From an uncultured Deinococcales bacterium (GTDB taxonomy: Bacteria; Deinococcota; Deinococci; Deinococcales; JAAFIG01): 11,541 bases of DNA. The notes under the pieces are model-generated. The model searched no databases. It was not told the origin of the DNA and was given only the letters and a program-made list of their open reading frames with translations. The DNA is taken from the NCBI GenBank assembly GCA_964244895.1, contig CAXTKV010000133.1, positions 1-11,541 of the forward strand. The letters run 5' to 3'. Positions 1 to 11,541 of this stretch are shown piece by piece. How positions within the stretch are numbered: the first letter of the stretch is position 1; the number at the start of each line of letters is the position of its first letter. The translations under genes were made by a program, and so were the position numbers.

Positions 1-1458
1 AGCGGTGAGCTGGACGATGTTCGCAGACGGCACGCCGAACACTTTTTGAAGCTCGTTCAAGCGGTCGAAGTCCACAGCACGAAACAGCAGGACAGTTCCG
101 GCGAAGTGCAAAGCCCGTGGTTGGATCGCTTGGACGCGGAACGAGAAAACCTCTGGGCGGCGCTCGGTTGGGCGCGCGATGCGCGAGCCATCGAGATGGG
201 ACTCGACCTTTCCGGGTCGCTCTGGCCATTCTGGATTTATCGGGGGTATTTCAACGAGGGCCGCAAATGGATCAACGAATACCTCGCCGCGCTCGAAGGT
301 TTGAAGGGTACGCCAACGCCCGCCATTCTGGCCAAGGCGCTCAACTCGGCTGGCGTTCTGGCCATGACGCAGGGCGATCTGGCGCAGGCTGAGGCGCAAC
401 TCGAGCGAGCTGCGCAGTTGCGGCGGCAACTGGGTCAACGTCTGGAGCTCGCTAAAACCCTCGGCAGTTTGGCCAACTTGGCCATCAGGAAAAAAGACTG
501 GACGCGAGCCGAAACCCATCTGGACGAAGGCATTGAGCTGACCCGTGGGGTGGGTTCGGATGCCATTCGCTCGAGGTTCCTGCTGTCCGCAGGTGATCTG
601 TACGCCGAGCGCGGTGATCTGGCGCGCGCCGAAGCGATGTACGACGAGAACCTCGCATTTTCGCGTTCGGTCGGCCATCAGATCGGCGTCGCCGATACGC
701 TTTTTCACCTCGGCAATCTGGCGTCTCAGAAGGGACAGCCCGATGCCGCCCGAAGGTTCTTCGAGGAAAGCCTGATCATTTTTCAGCAGTTCGGTAGCCC
801 CAGAGGCCTCGCCCAGACCCATTTCAACCTGGCCGAGATCGCCCGCAAGCAAGGTCGTTTCGAGGATGCGCGCGCCTCGTTCAAGGAGAGCTTGAGCATG
901 ACCTACCGGGCGCGATTTCGCAACGCCGTCATGATCAGTCTCGAGGGTTTCGGATTCGTGGCCTTCGGTGCGGGCGATCTTCGGGCCGCGACTCAATTTT
1001 TTGGGGCGGCGGCTGGTTTTCGAGAAGACTTCGGCGTCCCCATGTCTGCCGTGTACACCGATGAGTACGGAGCGGCCTTGCAGGCGCTCAGTCAAACGCT
1101 GGGCCAATCCCAGTTCGATCATCTCTGGACCTCAGCTCAGGGCTGGTCGCTCGACCAGGCCGTCCAGGAAGCGATCTCGTTCGAGATCGCTTCTGCTCAC
1201 CTGCCATCACCCGAGGTTCAGGGCGCGGTGGAACGAGAAGTCGTTCCGATCCTGAGCGCCCGCGAACTCGAGGTGTTGGGCTGCGTGGCGCGCGGGTTGT
1301 CGAACAAGGCGGTGGCCCGGACGCTCGAGATTTCGGATCACACGGTCAAGTTCCACCTGAACGCGGTCTTTCACAAGCTGCAGTGTCGGACTCGCGCCGA
1401 GGCCGTGCGCATCGGCTTCGATCGGCACCTGATCGCGCCGGATCAGCGCGACGATTGA
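1..1458 (+). CDS. TPR-repeat protein with C-terminal LuxR-type HTH (ATPase-TPR-LuxR regulator), 5'-truncated by the window
   Basis: Frame is open from base 1 (SGELDDVRRRHAEHFLKLV...). It has the WLDRLDAERENLWAAL motif typical of NB-ARC/TPR regulators, several TPR-like repeats (ALNSAGVLA..., TLFHLGNLA..., THFNLAEIA...) and a LuxR HTH LSARELEVLGCVARGLSNKAVARTLEISDHTVKFHLNAVFHKL. Confidence 0.92.
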   Translation, partial: SGELDDVRRRHAEHFLKLVQAVEVHSTKQQDSSGEVQSPWLDRLDAERENLWAALGWARDARAIEMGLDLSGSLWPFWIYRGYFNEGRKWINEYLAALEGLKGTPTPAILAKALNSAGVLAMTQGDLAQAEAQLERAAQLRRQLGQRLELAKTLGSLANLAIRKKDWTRAETHLDEGIELTRGVGSDAIRSRFLLSAGDLYAERGDLARAEAMYDENLAFSRSVGHQIGVADTLFHLGNLASQKGQPDAARRFFEESLIIFQQFGSPRGLAQTHFNLAEIARKQGRFEDARASFKESLSMTYRARFRNAVMISLEGFGFVAFGAGDLRAATQFFGAAAGFREDFGVPMSAVYTDEYGAALQALSQTLGQSQFDHLWTSAQGWSLDQAVQEAISFEIASAHLPSPEVQGAVEREVVPILSARELEVLGCVARGLSNKAVARTLEISDHTVKFHLNAVFHKLQCRTRAEAVRIGFDRHLIAPDQRDD

Positions 1459-1531
1459 ACATCCGGTCTCGAGCGGCTTGTCCTGAACCCTGCCGGTCGC
1501 GTTCGTCTCGGGCCGATGGGCGCTTCGGGAT

Positions 1532-1572
1532 AGAAGACAAGAACACCGTACAGAACGGTGTTCTTGTCTTCT
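1532..1572. terminator. Perfect 18-bp inverted repeat between convergent genes (probable bidirectional terminator) containing a copy of the 23-bp palindrome
   Basis: AGAAGACAAGAACACCGT-ACAGA-ACGGTGTTCTTGTCTTCT, lying between the stop codons at 1458 (+) and 1616 (-). Confidence 0.75.
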
Positions 1573-1615
1573 GCGAATCGTCGTTGGGCGGTGGATCGAA
1601 CAATCCGGATCGAAG

Positions 1616-2176
1616 CTAGTTCGGTTGGGCGGTGAACACGAAATCGGTCGTGCTGGTTTGCGCCCCGACTTGCAGATTGAGAATCAGGTGGATTCTCGTG
1701 GTCGCCCTGATCGGGTACGCGAACATCGGGTCGGAATACACGCCCGAATAGGTGCGCGCACCCATGCTCAACAGCGGAAAGAAATTGTCCACCATGCGAT
1801 CCTTCGCATCTATGACGGTCGGTGCTTGCGGTGGCAATTTGGAAACATAGGTGCGCTGTTCAATCGCGATCTTCGAGCTTCGACCGTCGGGCAGCAGGAT
1901 GCTCGAGTTGTCCCACAAGATCTGCGCGCTCTGCTCGGTTTTGTTGATGACCTCGACGTTGAAGTAACGCCGCGCGACCTTGATCTTGATGTCGTAGGCG
2001 GGCGTCGAGTAGATCCAGGTATCGCCCTGCGCCCCAATCGGTGTCTTGTTGACCTGCAGGTTGAAAACCCGCGCTCCCTCGTCGAAGCCGATGTCCGGAC
2101 CCGTGGTGCTCGTGTTGGCTGGCGCGCAGCCCGCGAGCAACCCCGCGAGCGCAATGCTGGCAATCAGTTTGTTCAT
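1616..2176 (-). CDS. Lipoprotein of unknown function (186 aa)
   Basis: Signal peptide with lipobox MNKLIASIALAGLLAG-C; GAGGAG RBS just upstream on the minus strand; beta-rich mature domain. Confidence 0.85.
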   Translation of the reverse strand: MNKLIASIALAGLLAGCAPANTSTTGPDIGFDEGARVFNLQVNKTPIGAQGDTWIYSTPAYDIKIKVARRYFNVEVINKTEQSAQILWDNSSILLPDGRSSKIAIEQRTYVSKLPPQAPTVIDAKDRMVDNFFPLLSMGARTYSGVYSDPMFAYPIRATTRIHLILNLQVGAQTSTTDFVFTAQPN

Positions 2177-2337
2177 GGCTTCTCCTCGCCGTGCGCGATG
2201 AACCGGTGTGGTCGCGTGTCGTGAATGCCGGTGTCCGCGCTTCCAGCGCTCTCGAACTCTCGCTCATCGTAGTTTTAAGGCAAAAGCTTCGGTATCAAAA
2301 CGCACACTCGAGTTGTTCGCGGCTTGGCCGCGAGGTG

Positions 2338-2352
2338 CACCGTGCTGGACGG
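2338..2352 (-). repeat. Partial palindrome-family copy in inverted core orientation
   Basis: CACCGTGCTGGACGG; its reverse complement CCGTCCAGCACGGTG is identical to part of the 5747 copy. Confidence 0.7.
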
Positions 2353-2370
2353 CAATATTTCCGTGCCCAG

Positions 2371-2393
2371 GAACACCGTCCAGGACGGTGTTC
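2371..2393. repeat. Perfect 23-bp palindrome GAACACCGTCC-A-GGACGGTGTTC
   Basis: Read directly; identical to 9016-9038. Confidence 0.95.
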
Positions 2394-2559
2394 TCGAGAA
2401 GGTGGGTTTTCAGGGCGATGTTCGGCTTCTAAACTCGAGCTGCTCATACCGACGGAGGTTCGAGGTTGCGCAGCGCCAGGAACCCATGTGCGTTATCGCC
2501 GGAGTTTTTTCGAGAACGTGCGAGCAATGAAACGTTGTTACGCCTCAGGGGCAAATTTC

Positions 2560-2766
2560 GTGCATCTACAAACAACTCTGAAGATCTCCCCGACGGAGAT
2601 CAATATGTTATGTAACGCCGTGTGGGAGGCACTCGTGTCTCTCGGGGCCACCCCCCACATGGTGGGTGTGCTTCCCGAAACGCCAAGTACGTTGGAGGTT
2701 CGGTACACCGCTTCTGGTGATGCTGCTGAGCAGTGCGCAGCCTACCTTCAGCGTCTTCGGCGCTAA
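2560..2766 (+). CDS. Small hypothetical protein (68 aa from GTG 2560; alternative starts ATG 2527 or ATG 2605)
   Basis: 3' part of the listed 2191..2766 ORF. GGAG lies 6 nt before ATG 2605, and a strong intrinsic terminator follows the stop directly. Confidence 0.5.
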   Translation: MHLQTTLKISPTEINMLCNAVWEALVSLGATPHMVGVLPETPSTLEVRYTASGDAAEQCAAYLQRLRR

Positions 2767-2775
2767 CGGTAGGTC

Positions 2776-2815
2776 ACAGAAGAGAACGCTTTGCGTCTCT
2801 CTTCTGTTTTTGTTT
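2776..2815 (+). terminator. Rho-independent terminator
   Basis: ACAGAAGAGA-ACGC-TTT-GCGT-C-TCTCTTCTGT followed by TTTTGTTT, 10 nt after the stop at 2766. Confidence 0.75.
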
Positions 2816-2927
2816 CACCCGACCAGGTTCGAAGTGTTTTGCTCAGTCCCGTTGCGCGGTTCGGATGGATTTGGCCTGAGGGTTTGCTGAGGAAAAGCAA
2901 TTCCGAACTCAGGATAATGAGTGAAGA

Positions 2928-2950
2928 AAACGCTGTTCAGGACGGTATTC
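2928..2950. repeat. Degenerate copy of the 23-bp palindrome (18/23)
   Basis: AAACGCTGTTCAGGACGGTATTC; all five differences from the consensus are transitions. Confidence 0.75.
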
Positions 2951-3405
2951 CTGAGCCAATACGCAGGTTTTTGCCGACCTTAATTAAGACGAAACGTCAC
3001 GAAAGGCATCTTTCAGAATCGCAGGATGTGTGTTCTTGACCCTCAGATCTCTCATCCGTGGCACCATGTGCTCATTCGTGTTCGAGTGACACGCATCGCT
3101 TGTGATTCGAAAGCTTCAGCTCGAGCCAGTCGGTTGGGTGAACGTGCCCGACCGACCCCTGGTCATGTGGCTAGGTGGTGCGTGGCTCGCCTGGCCCGAC
3201 CTCTCCATTCGGGCGATGGCAGGCGCGTCATAGATTTGGCACACTCCGGGCAACGATCTTTTTGGCATGCGAAACGCGGACGGCGCTCGTCCGAAATGCG
3301 AAAAGGAACGCCGTTGAAGCTCTGCGGTGCAAAAGTGCAATCAGCCATTGGTGGCTGATCGCCGAAGCAGAGGTTGAGCCCATTCAAATGGAGGAGGTCG
3401 AAATC

Positions 3406-4416
3406 ATGCTCTCGTCACAGGATTCCGCCAACATCCCAAATCCGGCCAGGTCCAGCATCGTGTGCTTGTGCGGCTGCGATCGGTTCAAACAAGCCTTCGA
3501 GGCCACCGCGCGCTGGTTGACACTCGAGGGCATGATCGTCACCAGCGTCATCAACGAAACCGCTGATGATTCGCCCGTCACCCAGATAGACGAGGTGGAT
3601 CTGCAAAAAATAGAGATGTGCGACGAGCTGTTGGTGATGAACGTCAACGGCTACATGGACGCGCTGACCCGCTTGCAGGTCAACCACGCGCAACGCATCG
3701 GAAAGATGATCCGTTTTCTCGAGGCCGCTGACTGGAATCCCTCGTTGCGCGGCGTGCGTCGGGCACCTCACGCCGCTAAACCCCTGGCGCTCGAGGATCA
3801 AAGCTCGCTCGCGCTCGAAGAAGGTACCGTCATCGATCTGACGCGTCCGTTCGTGGTGCAAAGCGGCGCAGTCCTGCTGTACGGCCCCGACCCGACGCGT
3901 CCCGCTTTCACGCTGGTCAGCGATCACGTCTGGCCGGGCGTGCGTTGGGTTCCCGAAGTCTGGTACGCCGAAGCCACCAGCAACACCCGCATCGGTGCGT
4001 TCAGTGCCGACGATGCCGCCCTGCGTCCGCTCGGCGAGATCATCCGTTGGGCAGTCGCGACCAGCGGCCAGATTTCGGAACGGATGTTGTGGGCCTTGTT
4101 CATCATCGGATCGGTCAGCACCCAGGAAGAACTGAGCGCCGTGATCGGTTGCCGCCGCGAATCGGTGACTTCCGCCATGCGCGATTTGCGCAACGATGGG
4201 CTGATCGAGAAAGTTGATGGCCGGATTCTCCTGACCGACAAGGGATTCGCCTGTGCGGCAAAGCTCTGCTCGCTCGAGCGCGATCTGAACGACGACACCG
4301 ATGAGAGCGACGACGCCGAAGATGAATCGGTCGTCTGGAACGAAGCACCAATCGATGCCGCTGAATCGGTGATCAACCTGCGCGGCGAAACTCGACGCTG
4401 GATGGTGGCGCAATGA
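3406..4416 (+). CDS. Crp/Fnr-type HTH regulator with an N-terminal nucleoside 2-deoxyribosyltransferase-like (flavodoxin-fold) domain
   Basis: GGAGGAGG RBS at 3390-3397 favours ATG 3406 over 3175. N-terminal IVCLCGCDRFKQAF...LQKIEMCDELLVMNVNGY...HAQRIGKMIRFLE; middle FVVQSGAVLLY...YAEATSNTRI resembles a reduced cNMP barrel; Crp HTH TQEELSAVIGCRRESVTSAMRDLRNDGLIE; acidic tail. Confidence 0.8.
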   Translation: MLSSQDSANIPNPARSSIVCLCGCDRFKQAFEATARWLTLEGMIVTSVINETADDSPVTQIDEVDLQKIEMCDELLVMNVNGYMDALTRLQVNHAQRIGKMIRFLEAADWNPSLRGVRRAPHAAKPLALEDQSSLALEEGTVIDLTRPFVVQSGAVLLYGPDPTRPAFTLVSDHVWPGVRWVPEVWYAEATSNTRIGAFSADDAALRPLGEIIRWAVATSGQISERMLWALFIIGSVSTQEELSAVIGCRRESVTSAMRDLRNDGLIEKVDGRILLTDKGFACAAKLCSLERDLNDDTDESDDAEDESVVWNEAPIDAAESVINLRGETRRWMVAQ

Positions 4417-4667
4417 TGCGCGCACTCGAAGCCCGCGTGGCCGGACATCTCAAGGCTTCGCGCCGCGCCACCGATCTGGAACAGGTTCGCGCCCTGGTGC
4501 GGCTGGTGGCGCTGACCGAATGCCCCGCGCGCGAGTTGGTGAAGGCGCTGCGGGCGCGACTGGACGGCGGGTTCTCGCTCGAGGCGGCCACGGACAGAAT
4601 CATCGAATGCTGGCAGAACCAGCGCCAGCTGCTCGAGCGCGACGAGTTCGCATCGCCCGGCGTCTGA
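4413..4667 (+). CDS. Small helical hypothetical protein (84 aa)
   Basis: ATGATG overlaps the upstream TGA (translational coupling); fills the gap before parB. Confidence 0.65.
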   Translation: MMRALEARVAGHLKASRRATDLEQVRALVRLVALTECPARELVKALRARLDGGFSLEAATDRIIECWQNQRQLLERDEFASPGV

Positions 4668-4755
4668 ACGCACCTGAAACTCGAGCCTCAACGATGTTCG
4701 CCCGTCGCGTAGGCAGTGCGCCCTTCGCGGTCAGACTGGATGGGCTGGAGGAAAC

Positions 4756-5712
4756 ATGCAAGCGATCACCGATGTGACCCTCAAGGCAGGCGTTCCCGTT
4801 GCGCTCGAGGGCCTCTGGCCTTCAGAAGTCAACCAGATAGAAGTGCTGGCGCTCTCGCAGTTGGTGCTGGGAACCTACCAGCCGCGAAAGCATTTCGATC
4901 CCAAAAAGCTCGATGAACTGACCGCCTCGATCCGCACGCATGGCGTGCTGCAACCCATCGTGGTGCGCCCCGTCGGGGCGGAGCGTTTCGAGATCATCGC
5001 CGGAGAGCGGCGTTACATGGCCTCGCAGCGCGCCGGTCTGCAACGCATTCCCGCCGTGATCAAAAACCTCGATGACCGCGAGGCGCTCGAGGTCGCGCTG
5101 CTGGTCAACCTGCAGCGCCAGGATCTAACCGAGATCGAGGAAACCGAAGGCGTGTTGCACCTGCTCTCGCTCCGGCTCGAGCGAAGCTTGTCGCAAACGG
5201 TGTCCTTTTTGTACCGCATGGACAACGAATCCAAAAGCAAAGTTACCCAATCGGTGTTGGGCAGCCACGACGGTCATGCGGTCGAATCGGTCTTCGCCAA
5301 ACTGGGCAAGATGACCTGGGGCAGTTTCGTCGCGACGCGTTTACCGCTCCTGAAATTGCCTCACGATCTGCTCGAAGCGCTCCGCTGCGGCGAGATCACG
5401 CCGATCAAAGCGCGCACGCTCTCGCGTTTGACGGATCTCACGGAACGCCGCAGGATGCTGACCGATCTTTTGCGCGAAGGCTGGAGCAACCAGGAGCTTC
5501 GCCACCGCATCGGTCTGCTGACCAACGCTCAACAGCCCCGCGATGCGCGCGTCGCGGTTCGGTTGCGCGCTTTTGAAAGCGCCATTCAGCGCGACCACAC
5601 CTGGACTGATGCTGCCCGCCGTCAACGCGCCCAAAGCCTACTGCGCGAACTCGAGCTCCTGCTGACCGAAGAGGGCTTCTCGTTTCAGTCCGCCCCTCGC
5701 CCGACAGCTTGA
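4756..5712 (+). CDS. parB: ParB/RepB/Spo0J family protein (no parA adjacent)
   Basis: GGAGG RBS; QPRKHFDPKKLDELTASIRTHGVLQPIVVRP...FEIIAGERRYMASQRAGLQRIPAVI...NLQRQDL; later LPLLKLPHDLLEALRCGEIT motif. Confidence 0.93.
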   Translation: MQAITDVTLKAGVPVALEGLWPSEVNQIEVLALSQLVLGTYQPRKHFDPKKLDELTASIRTHGVLQPIVVRPVGAERFEIIAGERRYMASQRAGLQRIPAVIKNLDDREALEVALLVNLQRQDLTEIEETEGVLHLLSLRLERSLSQTVSFLYRMDNESKSKVTQSVLGSHDGHAVESVFAKLGKMTWGSFVATRLPLLKLPHDLLEALRCGEITPIKARTLSRLTDLTERRRMLTDLLREGWSNQELRHRIGLLTNAQQPRDARVAVRLRAFESAIQRDHTWTDAARRQRAQSLLRELELLLTEEGFSFQSAPRPTA

Positions 5713-5745
5713 AGATTTCTCTAGATCCGCAACTGAAACTTTTTG

Positions 5746-5773
5746 AGAACACCGTCCAGCACGGTGTTCTTTT
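5746..5773. repeat. Palindrome-family copy AGAACACCGTCCAGCACGGTGTTCT followed by a T run (possible parB terminator)
   Basis: 22/23 identity to the consensus, about 35 nt after the parB stop. Confidence 0.9.
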
Positions 5774-5897
5774 GAATTAAAACACCGCGTTCCAGACGAT
5801 GTCCAAGAAATACCCGCCCGGTTTTTGAACGATTCGTGCGCGCCGTGAGATTTCAACCCGTCCCGGAACGCTGGTCTTTACGCCGGTGGTGCGGCGT

Positions 5898-5924
5898 TCC
5901 GAACGGGGCAGGTGCCCGTTCGGA
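5898..5924. other. 10-bp perfect inverted repeat (hairpin) in intergenic DNA
   Basis: TCCGAACGGG-GCAGGTG-CCCGTTCGGA. Confidence 0.6.
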
Positions 5925-6041
5925 TCAACCCTCACGCGGTTGGGCTGGCGCATCGCGATCGAGGCATTTGGTATTCACCTGCGCGGTCAATCTCGAGCAA
6001 TCGAGAAATGCCAGGCCGAACTTTGATTGAGGAACTTTGAT

Positions 6042-6629
6042 ATGCAACCTACGAAAACGCGGCTGCCGCACACTCTTGAGCTTGAGAGACGCGAGAGCCC
6101 TTTGAATCTCGAGCCCATTGTGGTTGTGAGAGCGCGGCTCGAGACACTGCTCGAGCGCGTTCCGGACATCGAGCCAGGTGTGAAAGAACTCCGCGACATC
6201 GAAGAATTCCTGCTCGAGCCCGAACGCGACGACTCCAGCGCGCCGAGAAAATCGTTCGTCAACCTGGAGAATGACCCTGGGGACAGCGTTCTTATTCTGA
6301 TCAGCCCGGTAAGCATGAACGTTTGCACGAACGAATTGCGCTTCAACAAACCGGAGCGAGAAAACACCCCGAACCAGCCCGAGAGATGGCTAGGCTACGC
6401 GAGAAATGCCTTCGTGTCGCGCTCGAAGCGATGCAGGCAGAACTCAGGAATCCTTGAGGGACGCGACACGAGGCGGAGGAGGAAGGCATGTTCAAGCGAT
6501 GGTTCGGCATCAACGTTTTATTCGCGTTCATCGCGTTCGCGGGTTCGGTTCAGGCGCAGCCGGTCACGTACTACGCCGATCAACTCGAGGCGGGCGCGAA
6601 ACCGATCCTGGTCTCACCGGGATACCTGA
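6042..6629 (+). CDS. Hypothetical ORF; N-terminal half protein-like, C-terminal half doubtful (overlaps the next gene by 142 nt)
   Basis: GAGGA before ATG 6042; in-frame CTCGAG (Leu-Glu) codon pairs as in neighbouring genes; the Arg/Ser-rich tail looks like off-frame read-through. Confidence 0.3.
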   Translation: MQPTKTRLPHTLELERRESPLNLEPIVVVRARLETLLERVPDIEPGVKELRDIEEFLLEPERDDSSAPRKSFVNLENDPGDSVLILISPVSMNVCTNELRFNKPERENTPNQPERWLGYARNAFVSRSKRCRQNSGILEGRDTRRRRKACSSDGSASTFYSRSSRSRVRFRRSRSRTTPINSRRARNRSWSHRDT

Positions 6630-7507
6630 CGCTGATTGATTTCTACCAGGAAGTTGACAAGGTCACGTCCGGACGGCCCGGACTGCTGAAAGTGGATGGT
6701 GGCGGCACCAGAATCTTCGTTTCTTCCCTGGCCAATTCCGGCGCGACCGATCTGATTATCGAGATCGGAACGCGCGTGCTGCTGTTCCGCGTGCAGATCG
6801 CGCAGGGTGAAACGCCCAGACGGTACATCGTCGCGCTCGAGAAACCAGTCGCGCCCAAACCCGTGCAGCAGGCCAGCCCGCCCCCAGCACCCGTCAGGGC
6901 CGTACAACCAGTCGCACCGGCAGCGACCGTGACACGCCCGAGCCAGCCCACGATGACGACCGTGGATACCCCGCCGCCCGCTGTCGCCGCCCAACCAGCC
7001 CAGACCACCGTGCGCGCGATTGCGACCACGGCTCCCGTCAAGACGAAACCAGCCGCGACCACCAAAACCAGCGCCGAGAACTCGAACACGACATCCAGCT
7101 CAACCTCCAGCTCGACTTCTAGCCCAACCTCCAGCTCGACCTCGGCTCGAATGGGAACCGAACGCAACCCAGCCTGGCTCGAGTTCGCGCTCGTCAAGGC
7201 GCGAACGGAAACTGGTCAGCTCACGATTTACTTCACGCTCAAAAATGCGGGCAAGGCGGGCGTGCTGGTCGACACATCGCGGCTGGTGACTTTTCAAGGA
7301 ACCCAACAGCTCGATACCACCATCGCCAGCGACAAAACGGTGCGCCAACTCCAGCCCGGTGAAACCCGTCTGGTCAGAATCATCGTCAAGCTGTCCAAAC
7401 CCGGCCCGGTTCTTCTGAGATGGTCCATGTTCGGCCCCAACCTGCAAGAGTATTCGCTCAACAGGAGGATCGATGTCACAGGTACTCAGAACTTGTCTGG
7501 CAATTAG
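6488..7507 (+). CDS. Secreted protein: N-terminal beta domain reminiscent of VirB9/TraK-type T4SS proteins, Pro/Ala/Thr/Ser linker, C-terminal Ig-like domain
   Basis: GGAGGAGG RBS; signal peptide ending VQA-Q; PILVSPGYLTLIDF...GATDLII pattern resembles VirB9/TraK N-termini (inference); low-complexity linker; C-terminal LTIYFTLKNAG...LQPGETRLVRI typical of Ig-like folds. Confidence 0.75.
   Translation: MFKRWFGINVLFAFIAFAGSVQAQPVTYYADQLEAGAKPILVSPGYLTLIDFYQEVDKVTSGRPGLLKVDGGGTRIFVSSLANSGATDLIIEIGTRVLLFRVQIAQGETPRRYIVALEKPVAPKPVQQASPPPAPVRAVQPVAPAATVTRPSQPTMTTVDTPPPAVAAQPAQTTVRAIATTAPVKTKPAATTKTSAENSNTTSSSTSSSTSSPTSSSTSARMGTERNPAWLEFALVKARTETGQLTIYFTLKNAGKAGVLVDTSRLVTFQGTQQLDTTIASDKTVRQLQPGETRLVRIIVKLSKPGPVLLRWSMFGPNLQEYSLNRRIDVTGTQNLSGN
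7094..7141 (+). repeat. Four tandem 12-bp repeats encoding a Ser/Thr-rich linker
   Basis: TCCAGCTCAACC TCCAGCTCGACT TCTAGCCCAACC TCCAGCTCGACC. Confidence 0.85.
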
Positions 7508-8966
7508 CGCCATTGCCGGATCGGCAGGTCTGGTCGCGCTGGCGGACAATCAGCCGATCATCGGCGCCCTGTCGCTGATCGAGATCGGTGCGCGCCCAGG
7601 CGCGGGAAACGAAGGGCCGGGACGCGGCGTGCTGCCGAACGGCGTCAACAACAGAACTGCCGATGAGCACGCGTTCGTCGAGGTGCTTCAGGTTCCGCGC
7701 CTGCGCGCCTACCAGAGTTGCCGCGCCAGCAAAGGCGCGGACTGCAACACCAACCCGAAGTACGCGCACGAATGGTCGGTGCCTTACATCAACGAGCAGA
7801 ACTCCGAAAAGCTCGAGGAGGGCCTCTCGAGGGCCTGGAACCGCTTCGATGCCAGGACGCTGTGGCGCATGAATTCGTTGATCAACTCGAACCCCGATCC
7901 GGGGCGAGCGCGCTACAGCTACAGCGGCAACTGCAGCGGATCGAAGCACACCGATCCATTCATCGATGCCTGGAACGACGACACCAGCGGCGAAATTGCC
8001 ACCGATGATTTCTGCGATAACTTGCAGCCAGATGGCGCCGAAGCCTACACCTGCAAGGACAACGGCAAGATCAAGGACATCAGGTGGGGTGTGGTGCAGG
8101 CGCGTTTCGACAAGGTCATGAAGTACTCCACCGAGGTCTATTACCCGTACATGCCAGCTTCCAATCCTGCGGATTACTGGAGCGAAGTTTACGCCACGAT
8201 GGATCTCTGGATGCCCGGCGCACTCGACTGGGACGGCGTTTATGACATTGACCGCTACGGCGCTGGCGGCGGAGTGATACCCCAGGGCGGGTACTCGGTC
8301 GGGTCGGCGGGCGGTTCGACCATCTCGCCGGTGTATTCGATCTTGCCCAACACGCCCATGTACGTCAGTCTGGCGGGCAAAGCGCAAGCGATCGATCCGC
8401 GCGGTTACGATTACATCCTGCGGCAGTACAAGGGCCAGGGTGCCAACCGCAAGAACCTCAAAGCCCTTCCCGGAGATTCGTACAGCACGGACGGTTATCC
8501 CGGCTTGCCCAAAATCGAGGCGCTCAAGTACAACCTCTCCGATCCGAACCGCGATATCTTCTACGCCTCGCCGCCCATGAAGTGGTCGGTCGGCGGTCAG
8601 GCCCGACCGACCGGAGCCAAGGGCCTGGGCAGCATGGTCGAGCAGCAGAACGTCGGCCACGCGACCTTCCTGCGCGTCTGGGCGCGCAAGGACAGGGAAT
8701 ACAGCCCCAGAGAAGTCCATTTCATCGTGAAGTGCAAGAAGGAAACCAAGGATTACCTGATTTCCAAAGGCGACAGGCAGGGCACGAACATCGTCGGCGA
8801 CACGAACCTCAAGCCGGGCTGTTGCAGCCCCGTCACGTTCGACAAAACTCGAGCCCACACGGACTGGAAAAGCATTCCCGAGGGTTACCAGATTCCGAAC
8901 GTGGTCGGCATTCCCATCAACCGCGATCCGACCAGAGCCAACGGCTACATTCCACCGATCAGGTGA
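7473..8966 (+). CDS. Secreted Cys-containing protein of unknown function (497 aa), possibly mating-pair stabilisation type
   Basis: AGGAGG RBS inside the upstream gene; hydrophobic signal ending ALA-D; eight Cys in the mature part; strong GC3 bias. The function is inferred from context only. Confidence 0.8.
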   Translation: MSQVLRTCLAISAIAGSAGLVALADNQPIIGALSLIEIGARPGAGNEGPGRGVLPNGVNNRTADEHAFVEVLQVPRLRAYQSCRASKGADCNTNPKYAHEWSVPYINEQNSEKLEEGLSRAWNRFDARTLWRMNSLINSNPDPGRARYSYSGNCSGSKHTDPFIDAWNDDTSGEIATDDFCDNLQPDGAEAYTCKDNGKIKDIRWGVVQARFDKVMKYSTEVYYPYMPASNPADYWSEVYATMDLWMPGALDWDGVYDIDRYGAGGGVIPQGGYSVGSAGGSTISPVYSILPNTPMYVSLAGKAQAIDPRGYDYILRQYKGQGANRKNLKALPGDSYSTDGYPGLPKIEALKYNLSDPNRDIFYASPPMKWSVGGQARPTGAKGLGSMVEQQNVGHATFLRVWARKDREYSPREVHFIVKCKKETKDYLISKGDRQGTNIVGDTNLKPGCCSPVTFDKTRAHTDWKSIPEGYQIPNVVGIPINRDPTRANGYIPPIR

Positions 8967-8980
8967 GCGCAGGCTGATCA

Positions 8981-8997
8981 GAAGACCGTCCAGCACG
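8981..8997 (+). repeat. Partial palindrome-family copy
   Basis: GAAGACCGTCCAGCACG matches the first 17 nt of the 5747 copy at 16/17. Confidence 0.75.
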
Positions 8998-9012
8998 CGA
9001 ATTCTACGCGCG

Positions 9013-9045
9013 AAAGAACACCGTCCAGGACGGTGTTCTTTTTTT
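9013..9045. repeat. Perfect palindrome copy AAAGAACACCGTCCAGGACGGTGTTCTTT plus T run (doubles as an intrinsic terminator)
   Basis: Core 9016-9038 identical to 2371-2393, followed by TTTTTTT, about 50 nt after the 8966 stop. Confidence 0.93.
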
Positions 9046-9238
9046 GGATCGCGCTCTGTTCTCGAGGGTGGGCGTCGTTCGATCTTGGGCACGCGTGCCC
9101 CCGACCCGCGCTCCAGCTTCACACCCGAGCAGAGGCTCGAGATTCGGGCTCGCGCCGCCGCGCGGAATTCGGTCGAGCCCAGGAATTTCAGGTGCGTTCT
9201 TGACGCGCTTGACCGTCGGAGTTGAAGAGAATGCAGTC

Positions 9239-9865
9239 ATGTTTTTCCAACCGCAACACCTGCGTTTCTGGCTGGCTGGCGCGGCCCTGTTTGCGGCGGC
9301 TCTGTGGGGCGTGGTGGTCTTGCTGGCCAACCAAAAAGATGCCGAACAGACCGCCAGGCTCGAGGCGACGCGCGGCACCGTGCTGGTCAGCCGCGCCAAA
9401 GCGCGAGGTGGTTTGAAGTCCGGCATCGGTCTGGAAGTGCGCTACACCAAGCTCGAGCGCACGCACACGCTGGGCGAGGTTCGTTACGTCAGCGCGCCGC
9501 CGGTCGGTGGCCCGCACAGCAGCATCTGGCAGAACTGCGGCGCCTACGATCAGCCCGTCCCCGACCTGACCGCCGTGCATTCACTCGAACACGGCGCGGT
9601 CTGGATTACCTACAAACCGGGCCTCGATGCCGCTGCGGTGGCGCGTCTGCGCGATCTCGCGCGCAAACCCTACGTGCTCGTCTCGCCGTACCCAACGCAA
9701 AGCGCCCCGATCACCGCGACCGCCTGGGGTGCGCAACTGCAACTCGGTCGGGCAGATGAGGCAAAACTCGAGGACTTCGTGGCGCGCTACACCAACCGGC
9801 GTGACGGCCCCGAATACGGCGCTCCGTGCGCGGGCGGCACGGGCATTCCGCTCGGTGCGAGTTGA
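9239..9865 (+). CDS. DUF3105 domain membrane-anchored protein
   Basis: N-terminal TM helix; PPVGGPHSSIWQNCGAYDQPV...VHSLEHGAVWITY...VLVSPYP...ITATAWG...GPEYGAPC motifs. Start moved to ATG 9239 because the listed N-terminus is non-protein-like. Confidence 0.88.
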   Translation: MFFQPQHLRFWLAGAALFAAALWGVVVLLANQKDAEQTARLEATRGTVLVSRAKARGGLKSGIGLEVRYTKLERTHTLGEVRYVSAPPVGGPHSSIWQNCGAYDQPVPDLTAVHSLEHGAVWITYKPGLDAAAVARLRDLARKPYVLVSPYPTQSAPITATAWGAQLQLGRADEAKLEDFVARYTNRRDGPEYGAPCAGGTGIPLGAS

Positions 9866-9897
9866 AACTCGCGCCAGTTCAACCCGGAGGAAAAAAC

Positions 9898-10314
9898 ATG
9901 AACGCGTTGACCCATAACAAACGATTCTCAGGACTTCAGATTGCGCTCTTCGCGGCGCTCTCAATGCTCGGATTATCCGGTTGCAACACGATCGGTGATC
10001 TGCTCGGCGTCAGCCCCGCTCGTGGCACGCTCAACCTGACGATCACGGGGCCGCAGGGCGCGCAGGTCAGCGCGACCGTCACCGGTGCGGACGAAGGCCC
10101 GCAGACCTTGACCGATGATGGTCGCGGCTTCACCAAAGCCTTGTCGCTCAGACCGGGCAACTACCCGATCACGGCCAGCGCCCTGAGCGGTTACGTCGCG
10201 CAGATCGCCGTCAAGCAATCCTCCGGCAACAGCACCAGGGATGGGTCTTACACGGTTCCGGTCGAATCCGGCGGTGTCACCACCGTGTCGGTCACGTACC
10301 GCGTCGGCCCGTGA
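9898..10314 (+). CDS. Lipoprotein with a beta-sandwich (PEGA/Ig-like) domain
   Basis: GGAGG RBS 7 nt before ATG 9898; lipobox LGLSG-C; GTLNLTITG...LRPGNYPITA...VESGGVTTVSVTY. Confidence 0.82.
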   Translation: MNALTHNKRFSGLQIALFAALSMLGLSGCNTIGDLLGVSPARGTLNLTITGPQGAQVSATVTGADEGPQTLTDDGRGFTKALSLRPGNYPITASALSGYVAQIAVKQSSGNSTRDGSYTVPVESGGVTTVSVTYRVGP

Positions 10315-10348
10315 ATCTACGGCGAACCTCGAGAACTCGCGCCACGCC

Positions 10349-10394
10349 ACGCCGTCCAGCACGCAGATTTTTAACGCGTGCCGGACGGCGTTTT
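10349..10394 (+). terminator. 16-bp inverted repeat (one mismatch) built from two palindrome-family cores, followed by Ts
   Basis: ACGCCGTCCAGCACGC-agatttttaac-GCGTGCCGGACGGCGT-TTT, 35 nt after the 10314 stop. Confidence 0.7.
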
Positions 10395-10513
10395 GATCGT
10401 GCTCGAGATCGCGGATCGATGGCCTGCCGCCTCGAAGTCAGCCGGAGTGCGCCTTTTCCAGTTTTCAGCCCAGCGCGGACGTACCCTAAATGCGACCTTC
10501 ATTGGCTGCACGT

Positions 10514-10714
10514 ATGTACGTCTATATTTTTTTCTTGGCATCAGATGATGCCTGCAGGTTTCTCGATCAGATGGGTTACGAGTTCGTTCCTGGAACGATC
10601 GGAAACGAACGCATCGCCGCTCTTTCGATTGTCTCTCAAGGGCTGGCTCAAACGCTTTTCAGCGAGATGAAGAGTCGCAATCTCGCGTCGCGGTGGTTCA
10701 TCGAACTGCGGTGA
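10514..10714 (+). CDS. Small hypothetical protein (66 aa; alternative start 10490)
   Basis: Protein-like composition (MYVYIFFLASDDACRFLDQMGYEF...) and a strong hairpin 10 nt after the stop; no clear RBS. Confidence 0.4.
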   Translation: MYVYIFFLASDDACRFLDQMGYEFVPGTIGNERIAALSIVSQGLAQTLFSEMKSRNLASRWFIELR

Positions 10715-10723
10715 AGCGAGCGC

Positions 10724-10758
10724 ATCGGCAGGAAATCCTTTCGGGGTTTCCTGCCGAT
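10724..10758. terminator. Strong hairpin, probable bidirectional terminator between the small ORF and traX
   Basis: ATCGGCAGGAAATCC-TTTCG-GGGTTTCCTGCCGAT. Confidence 0.75.
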
Positions 10759-10841
10759 TCATAGCCCCAGACTCGCCGATTCTAGGCTCGAGACTCGGCC
10801 CGCGCTTTCTAGAGCGCTCAGTCCCTTGAAACGATGTTCTC

Positions 10842-11541
10842 TCACTTCAGAACATCGCGGATGATCACCAGCGCGAGCAGGTGGCCCGGGTAAAACCCAT
10901 ACGCCAGAAATCGCTCGCGGGCCAGCAAACGCGGACGATCGCGCAGAAGGTGCGCGACCGCAATCACCACCAACGGCACGAACAAAGCCATGAACGATTC
11001 GGGCAGCAGGCTGTTCAGCATCAGCGTCACGAAACCCCACGACAGCCACATCAGCGGGTCGGCGGGCTTGCGCAACAGCGCCGCCCAGATCGGAACCATC
11101 AGGCAACCAAAGAACGCGTATTCCGTCCAGGTGTTGACCGCCACGAACGGAATGGCCGCCAGCCAGACCGCCCAGCCGAACCCGCGCCCCTCCAGGCGGC
11201 GCTGGATGAACCACAACCCGATCCCCAGGATCAGCGTGAAAAAAATGTTGGCGTAGGGCGTGTGAAAGGCGACCACGTACACGGGTTGGCTGACCAGGCC
11301 GCAAATCAGCAACGGCATCACGTAACGGCGCGGGTTGACGCCGCGCACTTGCAGGTTGTATGCGATCAGAAACGCGAACAGCGGGAACGCCATGCGCGCA
11401 ACCCACGAGAGCGCCGGAGCGTTCCCGCCCAGCACGACCTTGTTGGCGTGATCCAGCAGCATCAATCCGAGCGCCGTGAGCTTCAGGGCGTCCTGAGCGC
11501 CACCGGAGAGTCTCGGCCAGGCCAGGGCGGGGAACTGAGCG
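10842..11541 (-). CDS. traX: TraX family (pilin acetylase-like) membrane protein, start outside the window
   Basis: Frame open to the window end (...DALKLTALGLMLLDHANK...); motifs RMAFPLFAFLIAYNL, LVSQPVY, NIFFTL and YGFYPGHLLAL are typical of TraX. Confidence 0.9.
   Translation of the reverse strand, partial: AQFPALAWPRLSGGAQDALKLTALGLMLLDHANKVVLGGNAPALSWVARMAFPLFAFLIAYNLQVRGVNPRRYVMPLLICGLVSQPVYVVAFHTPYANIFFTLILGIGLWFIQRRLEGRGFGWAVWLAAIPFVAVNTWTEYAFFGCLMVPIWAALLRKPADPLMWLSWGFVTLMLNSLLPESFMALFVPLVVIAVAHLLRDRPRLLARERFLAYGFYPGHLLALVIIRDVLK

Follow-up and report, generated by a model that had tools for sequence, protein, structure and literature searches.

A conserved gene of the Deinococcales joins an NDT-fold domain that lacks the catalytic residue to a shrunken Crp-type protein, and it usually stands at the head of a T4SS gene cluster. 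We describe it from a single window, 11,541 nucleotides at the start of contig CAXTKV010000133.1 (assembly GCA_964244895.1), whose full length is 15,057 bases, in genome G000 (5.1 Mb, 328 contigs). The gene and its parts are as follows.

3406..4416, + strand: fusion gene, 336 aa; uninterrupted ORF with RBS GGAGGAGG at 3390-3397
3454..3723, + strand: NDT/TIR (DRHyd)-fold domain, residues 23-112, with nucleophile and pocket residues replaced
3676..3678, + strand: CAG codon, Gln97, where stand-alone relatives carry Glu
3799..4002, + strand: shortened cNMP-type beta barrel, residues 138-205; cAMP-site Gly-Glu and Arg missing
4012..4059, + strand: short C-helix, residues 209-224, core of the predicted dimer interface
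4072..4269, + strand: Crp-type winged HTH, residues 229-294; Arg257-Glu258 in 24/24 fusions
4270..4413, + strand: acidic tail of low model confidence and variable length

The joined gene and its two halves

The ATG at 3406, behind the RBS, is the likely start, so that the 336-aa protein spans 3406-4413; residue numbers here follow P0001 (window 3388-4413), that is, the 336-aa protein (P0002) plus 6. GC content by codon position (0.62/0.45/0.76) follows a coding-type pattern. A homolog search returned 22 proteins including the query, each covering 80-98% of it at 44-77% identity. All relatives with an assigned taxon are Deinococcales, the named species being Deinococcus koreensis and D. planocerae, with the homologs WP_103313637.1 and WP_102127590.1, and the fusion also occurs in four genome records titled Deinococcales MAGs, one titled chromosome. 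A representative search added two divergent members, P0024 and P0025, giving an alignment of 25 rows and 24 distinct proteins (two rows are the same protein). Full-length fusions occur in 8 of 364 Deinococcota genomes, and a separate small gene matching the N-domain alone occurs in 48 of the 364 (rows at E<=4.3e-15; G324 enters counts only as part of denominators). The search for shorter, Crp-part-only forms (30-187 aa) gave 28 candidates, which reduced to a single 98-aa fragment. With all 22 homologs full-length and no Crp-part-only form, a fusion artefact is ruled out, and the possibility that homologs carry the halves as separate genes is answered in favor of a real joined gene. Viral contigs and JGI metagenome contigs yielded no full-length relative, nor did PLSDB plasmids, where 28 records match the N-domain only. 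The preliminary description did not recognize this architecture as a described one, and we likewise found no description in the openly readable literature searched; the supplementary tables of the Aravind group DRHyd surveys could list it.

The N-domain belongs to a large, mostly stand-alone family: 3562 representatives are homologous to it at E<=0.001, and 144 of the best 150 match only residues ~10-130. A model built from an alignment of 72 mostly stand-alone relatives (pLDDT 87.5) depicts a three-layer alpha/beta sandwich with five parallel strands, that of the TIR-DRHyd-SLOG fold class. Compared with solved structures, it scores Z 10.4 against 1t1j, 10.3 and 10.1 against bacterial TIR domains, and 10.0, 9.8, and 9.7 against NDTs, so that TIR and NDT are tied by Z score. 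The top 16 VIA rows are all NDT, TIR/SEFIR, MilB, or 1t1j, and Foldseek gave just two matches under E 0.001, both NDTs. The NDT-like assignment first made from a sequence pattern is thus upheld at the level of fold class by structure comparison. Sequence profiles see less: Pfam PF05014 has no match in 22 fusions and matches 1/73 rows of the stand-alone alignment (E 0.017), a PDB sequence search with that alignment found no NDT, and the parent family weakly matches DUF4406 (21/73 members, best E 0.00063).

The pattern itself fits the stand-alone family, which keeps Ser30, His71, Gly91, Ser93, and Glu97. This Glu-bearing DRHyd parent family (L013-L034; P0026-P0169) reads CGSxRF...DELH.RKID...GYIGESTR.EI and is without a Pfam model. 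It is chromosomal in many Deinococcota and often viral elsewhere, as it often is in Atlas clusters; it includes tandem copies (P0031, P0038) and copies fused to other domains (P0050, P0072), the partners of which we take by eye to be DUF5664-like and RNase HII-like. Its strand-1 loop resembles that of DNPH1, and the stand-alone family is for this reason possibly an NMP N-hydrolase. Separately, PF05014 matches proteins of ~350 aa encoded at L052-L065 (families f2, f3, and f4); in two of these it covers two stretches (tandem NDT domains).

At position 97, Glu is present in 140/144 stand-alone representatives, in 22/22 stand-alone Deinococcota copies fetched, and in 0/24 fusions. The Glu-to-Gln change noted earlier is correct for the window copy (CAG) and fails as a family trait, Gln occupying 13 of the 25 fusion rows, with His in 5, Gly in 3, Ile in 2, and Val in 2. 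The other pocket positions have gone the same way. Ser30, His71, Gly91, and Ser93 are found in 140, 142, 142, and 139 of the 144 representatives, and parents hold Ser30, Asp68, His71, Gly91, Ser93, and Glu97 at 95-99%; the corresponding counts in fusions are 8, 10, 0, 1, 1, and 0 of 24. Positions 30, 68, 71, 93, and 97 are variable among fusions, and an acid stands at 71 in 16/25 rows and is absent in 9/25; the window copy combines Gln97 with Asp71. Fusions retain Gly48, Val51, Lys74, Ile75, Asn85, Gly88, Ala101, and Gly105 (Lys74, Asn85, and Gly88 in 23/24), and have newly conserved Asp91 (21/24) and Gln102 (22/24, at the outer end of the helix). In the model Asp91 lies where helix 92-103 begins, and its role may be no more than capping that helix.

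By a weak mapping, in which an hhalign match (probability 3.6%, E 0.012) is chained to PDB alignments, position 97 falls on the Glu that is the nucleophile of Rcl/DNPH1 and L. leichmannii NDT, position 71 on their acid Asp, and position 91 on the Ser/Asp that precedes this Glu by six residues. Positions 71 and 91 also align, again weakly, with two sugar-contacting aspartates of CtNDT. In that enzyme the nucleophile is E88; the E88Q variant keeps ~1/50 of the efficiency and still binds a nucleoside analogue, with D62 suggested as the substitute (PMC10913048). The preliminary description called the domain catalytically dead, and here the loss of the nucleophile stands; given what E88Q of CtNDT retains, the window copy, judged by its residues, is likely but not certain to be dead. 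Across the fusion family as a whole, meaningful catalysis is very probably gone. Inactive TIR/DRHyd/SLOG domains have been described as nucleotide sensors (PMC9503650, in its section 3.3.3).

The N-domain is the fastest-evolving part of the protein, with a mean identity of 41% vs 64-65% for barrel and HTH. It is nonetheless under purifying selection, with dN/dS of 0.08, 0.12, 0.19, 0.22, and 0.12 in five genome pairs (three of these are among three close genomes, and one is near saturation). A quick tree of 94 domains, drawn with every third representative, sets the long-branched fusions apart from the rest by a single branch (SH-aLRT 94), as is compatible with a single origin of the fusion.

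For the C-terminal half, Pfam PF13545 (HTH_Crp_2) matches the window protein over its cut-off (E 1.5e-8) and 22/22 members (best E 7.8e-9), bearing out the clear Crp HTH seen at the outset; Arg257-Glu258 of its recognition helix is invariant. Foldseek with the full-length model (pLDDT 76.9) places CRP/FNR proteins on top over ~185-220 columns (best E 1.1e-7), with DdrI, TTHA1359/SdrP, and TTHB099 at ranks 2, 3, and 5. By sequence alone the barrel is not significant (hhalign E 0.3), and Pfam cNMP_binding matches none of the fusion members; in a forced alignment it pairs strand by strand with the six Crp proteins of G000 itself. The reduced cNMP-like barrel of the preliminary description is thus supported by Foldseek and strand order, and not by the sequence-only test. 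A VIA second look returned only MarR-type wHTH rows and did not reach the barrel, and Atlas matches for P0014 include Crp clusters at 0.81, a lead only.

The barrel reads HVWPG..WVPEVWYAEA, without FGE and without the Arg, and its phosphate-binding loop is ~8 residues shorter; the C-helix (~10 residues) and the pre-HTH hairpin are also shortened relative to the Crp proteins of G000. As read from the alignment, both the Gly-Glu and the Arg-Ser/Thr of the cAMP cassette are missing. The roles of E72 and R82 in the cAMP site, and the binding of DNA by DdrI without cAMP, are described in PMC11253593. In all likelihood the fusion regulator acts independently of cAMP.

The protein is predicted to be a Crp-type homodimer joined through the C-helix. 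A two-copy prediction scored ipSAE 0.74 vs 0.00 for the best of three controls; the mark is reached by 20/30 solved one-chain pairs and 1/23 single chains, and the score may stem from the predictor's memory of solved Crp dimers. At least 85% of contacts recur between dimer runs (pLDDT >=80), and the predicted interface comprises C-helix 207-226, hairpin 175-181, and HTH 236-254. We considered whether the NDT domain substitutes as dimer module for the short C-helix; this is not supported, because every residue named in the predicted contact is numbered 125 or above and its geometry is that of Crp (unnamed residues are uncertain).

No operator emerged. Upstream of the fusion, none of the 8 loci has a Crp box with at least 8/10 matches, a Gibbs sampler reached 19.2 bits against a null of 17.8-19.4, and the spaced-palindrome count is within its null; inverted repeats are present there, with spacing that differs across genomes. 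Window positions 1400-6600 contain no sigma-70 consensus promoter.

The T4SS cluster and a second private gene

The fusion lies among the following features, the last two entries being outside the window.

46..1458, + strand: TPR-LuxR regulator, C-terminal part; relatives in 5/7 linked clusters (DNA fetched)
4413..4667, + strand: 84-aa ORF overlapping the fusion stop (ATGA), translationally coupled, with coding-like GC3
4756..5712, + strand: ParB-family gene, directly downstream in 4/8 fusion loci
6488..7507, + strand: 339-aa exported T4SS-cluster protein, no Pfam family; downstream of the fusion in 7/8 loci
7473..8966, + strand: 497-aa Cys-rich exported T4SS-cluster protein, no Pfam family
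10842..11465, - strand: TraX pilin acetylase
G000:C113:6587-7666 (L108:6584-7666): pseudo-cyclase/cold-shock domain (CSD) gene
L036:8297-9565, L037:8269-9363, L046:7082-8374, and L049:18156-19268: pseudo-cyclase/CSD gene elsewhere

The 84-aa ORF has no homolog in any other fetched locus and could be a lineage-specific modulator. Beyond the window, the same contig continues with a TraM/VirB10-like gene and a VirB2 pilin. Short palindromic REP-like repeats, with many copies in the genome, occur in the window at 1538-1564, 2368-2394, 2925-2951, ~5745-5800, and 8980-9060.

In 7/8 loci the fusion comes first in a same-strand run and is followed by (a solo ParB and) the 339-aa and 497-aa genes. All 7 linked clusters encode VirB2, VirB3, VirB4, a VirB6-like protein, VirD4, and a SpoIIIAA-like ATPase, and some add a TraM/VirB10-like gene, a PLD-like protein, a lytic transglycosylase, TraX, or the TPR-LuxR regulator (clade loci: window 4756-11465 plus G000 contigs C113 and C87; L035/L046/L048; L036/L044/L045; the cluster is split over contigs in G000, G051, G137, and G138). 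When the VirB4 of G140 is used as query, 86 genomes match: the seven linked genomes take ranks 1-7 (66-100% identity); G141, the eighth fusion genome, takes rank 8 at 46%, a thin margin; and the remaining 78 are at <=45% identity, none with a full-length fusion. The seven are related genomes with one island inherited in common, and do not count as independent events. We found no description of this T4SS clade of Deinococcales in the literature searched.

The G141 locus (L041:3098-11956) has a divergent fusion copy, P0025 (28%), and no T4SS gene on its 12.9-kb contig; its neighbors are a primase-like gene, a sigma factor, a TPR-GGDEF protein, two S41 peptidases, and ParB. The HTH of P0025 differs (QRES), which suggests that this copy would regulate another target. 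Island cargo (L044:8602-19088; L046:9557-19989; L047:338-2137; L117-L118) is rich in exported lipoproteins that bear carbohydrate-binding modules, along with subtilases, a protein with an eCIS-core domain, and a partial match to thiol-activated cytolysin; these are possible T4SS substrates, or just cargo. TPR-LuxR regulators and sugar-use genes on the islands are possible alternative controllers and targets. G000 also carries two or more additional T4SS gene sets that are more distant (contigs C244, C279, C190, and C32), one of which has a Replic_Relax relaxase behind a TraM-like gene.

A gene for a 350-370 aa pseudo-cyclase/CSD protein, annotated as 'cold shock protein' or not at all, is present in 7/7 linked clusters and adjoins the fusion divergently in G036 and G051; it is absent from the locus of G141 and from five ICE loci fetched. 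Full-length matches came only from fusion genomes (4/291 searched, all 4 of them profile seeds). The N-terminal part resembles class III nucleotidyl cyclases (hhalign 95.7%, E 8.8e-9; PF00211 on the comparison set), both metal-binding Asp residues are missing in 16/16 homologs, and the C-terminal part weakly matches two cold-shock-like folds. The pairing of a dead cyclase with a Crp that lacks the cAMP site hints that an old cNMP module has been put to another purpose.

The cluster descends from a conjugative element: VirB4, coupling protein, and pilin are present in 7/7 linked genomes. The next VirB4 relatives are ICE-like: in 5/5 examined, the TraM-like gene is directly followed by one for a Replic_Relax-type relaxase of 167-195 aa, and 3/5 begin with a putative serine integrase (read by eye); none of these five related clusters has the fusion or its Crp part within ~20 kb on each side of VirB4, and the 339-aa gene does recur in related ICEs. 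ICE-like elements of families f4 and f5 with this very short relaxase are at L097-L106, where the one copy scored against Pfam narrowly passes (29.5 bits, cut-off 25.3). In the DNA fetched for the 7 linked clusters, a six-frame scan found no relaxase of the ICE-relative type (best E 11). A custom profile of that relaxase matches 96/364 Deinococcota genomes and, genome-wide, nothing in G143 (one contig, 94% complete) or in G137, G138, and G140 (79-88% complete); six Pfam relaxase families are blank in G143, G140, G036, and G051. In G000, G036, and G051 the relaxase copies are not on the contigs of the cluster; those of G000 and G051 accompany a second, distant T4SS. G141 has a relaxase, and may show the ancestral mobile state.

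A tRNA-Ala with a broken tyrosine integrase beside it marks where the island of G143 begins, ~25 kb away from the cluster, most other borders being beyond the data. Synonymous divergence of the fusion, virB4, 339-aa, and ATPase genes is 0.34-0.52 among G137, G138, and G140 and 0.42-0.67 between G036 and G051, and for recA and gyrB in the same groups it is 0.41-0.86 and 0.45-0.46; VirB4 identity is 98-99% and 88%, respectively. This match, with two marker genes, argues for vertical inheritance under selection, and the patchy range (2/111 genomes in genus g8) for old transfer or much loss. Taken together, linked clusters without relaxase, housekeeping-like divergence, and a second private gene favor a domesticated ex-ICE over a mobile element, and the T4SS cluster appears to be kept by its host without a relaxase of the types searched. 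The earlier placement on a mobile element therefore survives as ancestry and not as present state.

Proposed function of the fusion regulator

We tentatively read the protein, with slightly less than even confidence in the whole, as a dimeric, cAMP-free regulator of its own T4SS cluster that is switched by a ligand of the dead domain. The fusion would dimerize as Crp does, via hairpin 175-181 and the C-helix, the confident part of the interface leaving out the NDT domains; the dimer would bind promoters of the relaxase-less T4SS cluster that it heads; and the remodelled pocket would hold a small unphosphorylated nucleoside- or sugar-like ligand as the switch. T4SS genes are probably the target, by analogy with Crp activation seems somewhat favored over repression, and an input by ligand rather than by protein contact is an evenly balanced proposition. 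A non-phosphorylated nucleoside or sugar is suggested because the phosphate-side serines, Ser30 and Ser93, are mostly lost, acids occur at both sugar-contact positions, 71 and 91, and the loop after strand 3 is conserved; the variability of the pocket is unlike that of a tight single-ligand sensor and counts against a ligand.

That variability counts in favor of a rival in which the domain is a protein-docking or autoinhibitory module on the same regulator with the same target and no small molecule, a reading that we hold to be unlikely, if well short of negligible. Pocket residues lost or variable while fold residues are kept, an N-domain that is the least conserved of all domains, and the newly conserved Gln102 would suit docking to an anti-activator, to RNA polymerase, or to the co-inherited pseudo-cyclase/cold-shock protein, the last of these supported by its presence in every linked cluster and its place next to the fusion in two genomes, G036 and G051. 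Conservation nonetheless persists in the loop that follows strand 3 (Asn85, Gly88, Asp91), and regulators with an enzyme-derived domain, NrtR for one, usually use it to sense a ligand (PMC2330246). At the other extreme, the N-domain might be a relic passenger, a stabilizer or spacer on a Crp part as constitutively active as DdrI. Long branches after fusion and the heavy erosion of the N-domain in P0024 and P0025 fit such a relic, and its position outside the confident dimer interface is, for the tool used, no evidence either way; a domain never lost in 24 proteins, with no N-domain-less form found and with dN/dS well under 1, makes it very improbable. Residual chemistry, in the form of a slow N-glycosidase that works through Asp71 and, by using up the ligand it senses, acts as a timer that resets itself, draws on the activity left in E88Q of CtNDT with D62 as suggested substitute (PMC10913048) and on Gln97 with Asp71 in the window copy, and has against it the 11 or 12 of 25 rows with His, Gly, Ile, or Val at 97 and the rows lacking an acid at 71, so that we give it hardly any weight.

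The target could also be other than the T4SS. Crp proteins often have carbon use under their control, and sugar ABC transporters, alpha-amylase-family genes, and CBM lipoproteins flank the cluster in G036, G051, G140, G143, and G000, so the fusion might regulate island cargo (sugar uptake, glycan degradation), or act more widely, with its T4SS position an inherited synteny; the G141 copy, which is not beside T4SS genes, agrees with this. The cargo, however, varies between genomes and comes with its own ROK/LacI/DeoR-type regulators, and the order fusion-339-497 is constant in 7 loci, which leaves cargo control quite improbable. Returning to the ligand-switched T4SS regulator, its furthest extension is a long shot: a conjugation machine that Deinococcales have domesticated for secretion or DNA exchange without a relaxase, under the control of a dead-enzyme signalling module (the NDT-fold nucleoside sensor on a cAMP-less mini-Crp together with the dead class III cyclase/cold-shock fusion) and switched on by nucleosides from damaged or lysed neighbors.

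Relation to known systems

By structure the fusion protein belongs to CRP/FNR, and is neither an NDT enzyme nor a retron effector. With DdrI, TTHA1359/SdrP, and TTHB099 it shares barrel, C-helix, and winged HTH, the Arg-Glu recognition motif, and the predicted dimer geometry; it differs in its extra N-terminal NDT-fold domain and acidic tail, in having no hairpin ahead of the HTH, and in being tied to one island rather than global. CRP/FNR proteins thereby gain a type of input domain that has not been described for them, and the fusion would serve as a transcription-factor read-out for a DRHyd-fold pocket. NDTs, DNPH1 (Rcl), and MilB share the fold of the N-domain (Z 9.7-10.4, rmsd 3.2-3.5, 91-100 aligned), whereas the fusion, compared with these and with DUF4406-like proteins, has no nucleophile Glu, a domain of only ~90 residues, and a transcription factor joined to it. 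The parent DRHyd family is phage-rich, with thousands of clusters, and a ligand would inform on both the regulator and that family.

Among regulators, NrtR likewise sets an enzyme-derived, often inactive domain on a DNA-binding domain (PMC2330246), with a Nudix-like sensor fold, another HTH family, ADP-ribose as ligand, and NAD genes as target. Csa3 (CARF + wHTH) joins a Rossmann-like sensor to a wHTH (Z 9.2, rmsd 12.8), but its sensor has the CARF fold, dimerizes, and binds cyclic oligoadenylate, and there is no Crp barrel. The only described NDT-like plus winged HTH architecture that we found is the retron Ec86/Eco1 effector, which, according to 10.1101/2023.08.16.553469, keeps its catalytic E106 and is a toxic defence effector acting with RT and msDNA, without a Crp barrel; no reverse transcriptase was seen in the fusion loci scanned.

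The cluster itself recalls MOBless T4SSs, which have VirB4 and VirD4 without relaxase, are often chromosomal, and are thought to be recruited for other tasks, as set out in PMC3548315, where Deinococcus and Thermus have no mention. Here a relaxase-less, vertically kept T4SS in free-living Deinococcales is marked by its regulator, and since this regulator is present in two cultured species, D. koreensis and D. planocerae, an exapted T4SS function could be tested by switching it on. What sets the Deinococcales clade apart from other MOBless systems is its two private pseudoenzyme genes.
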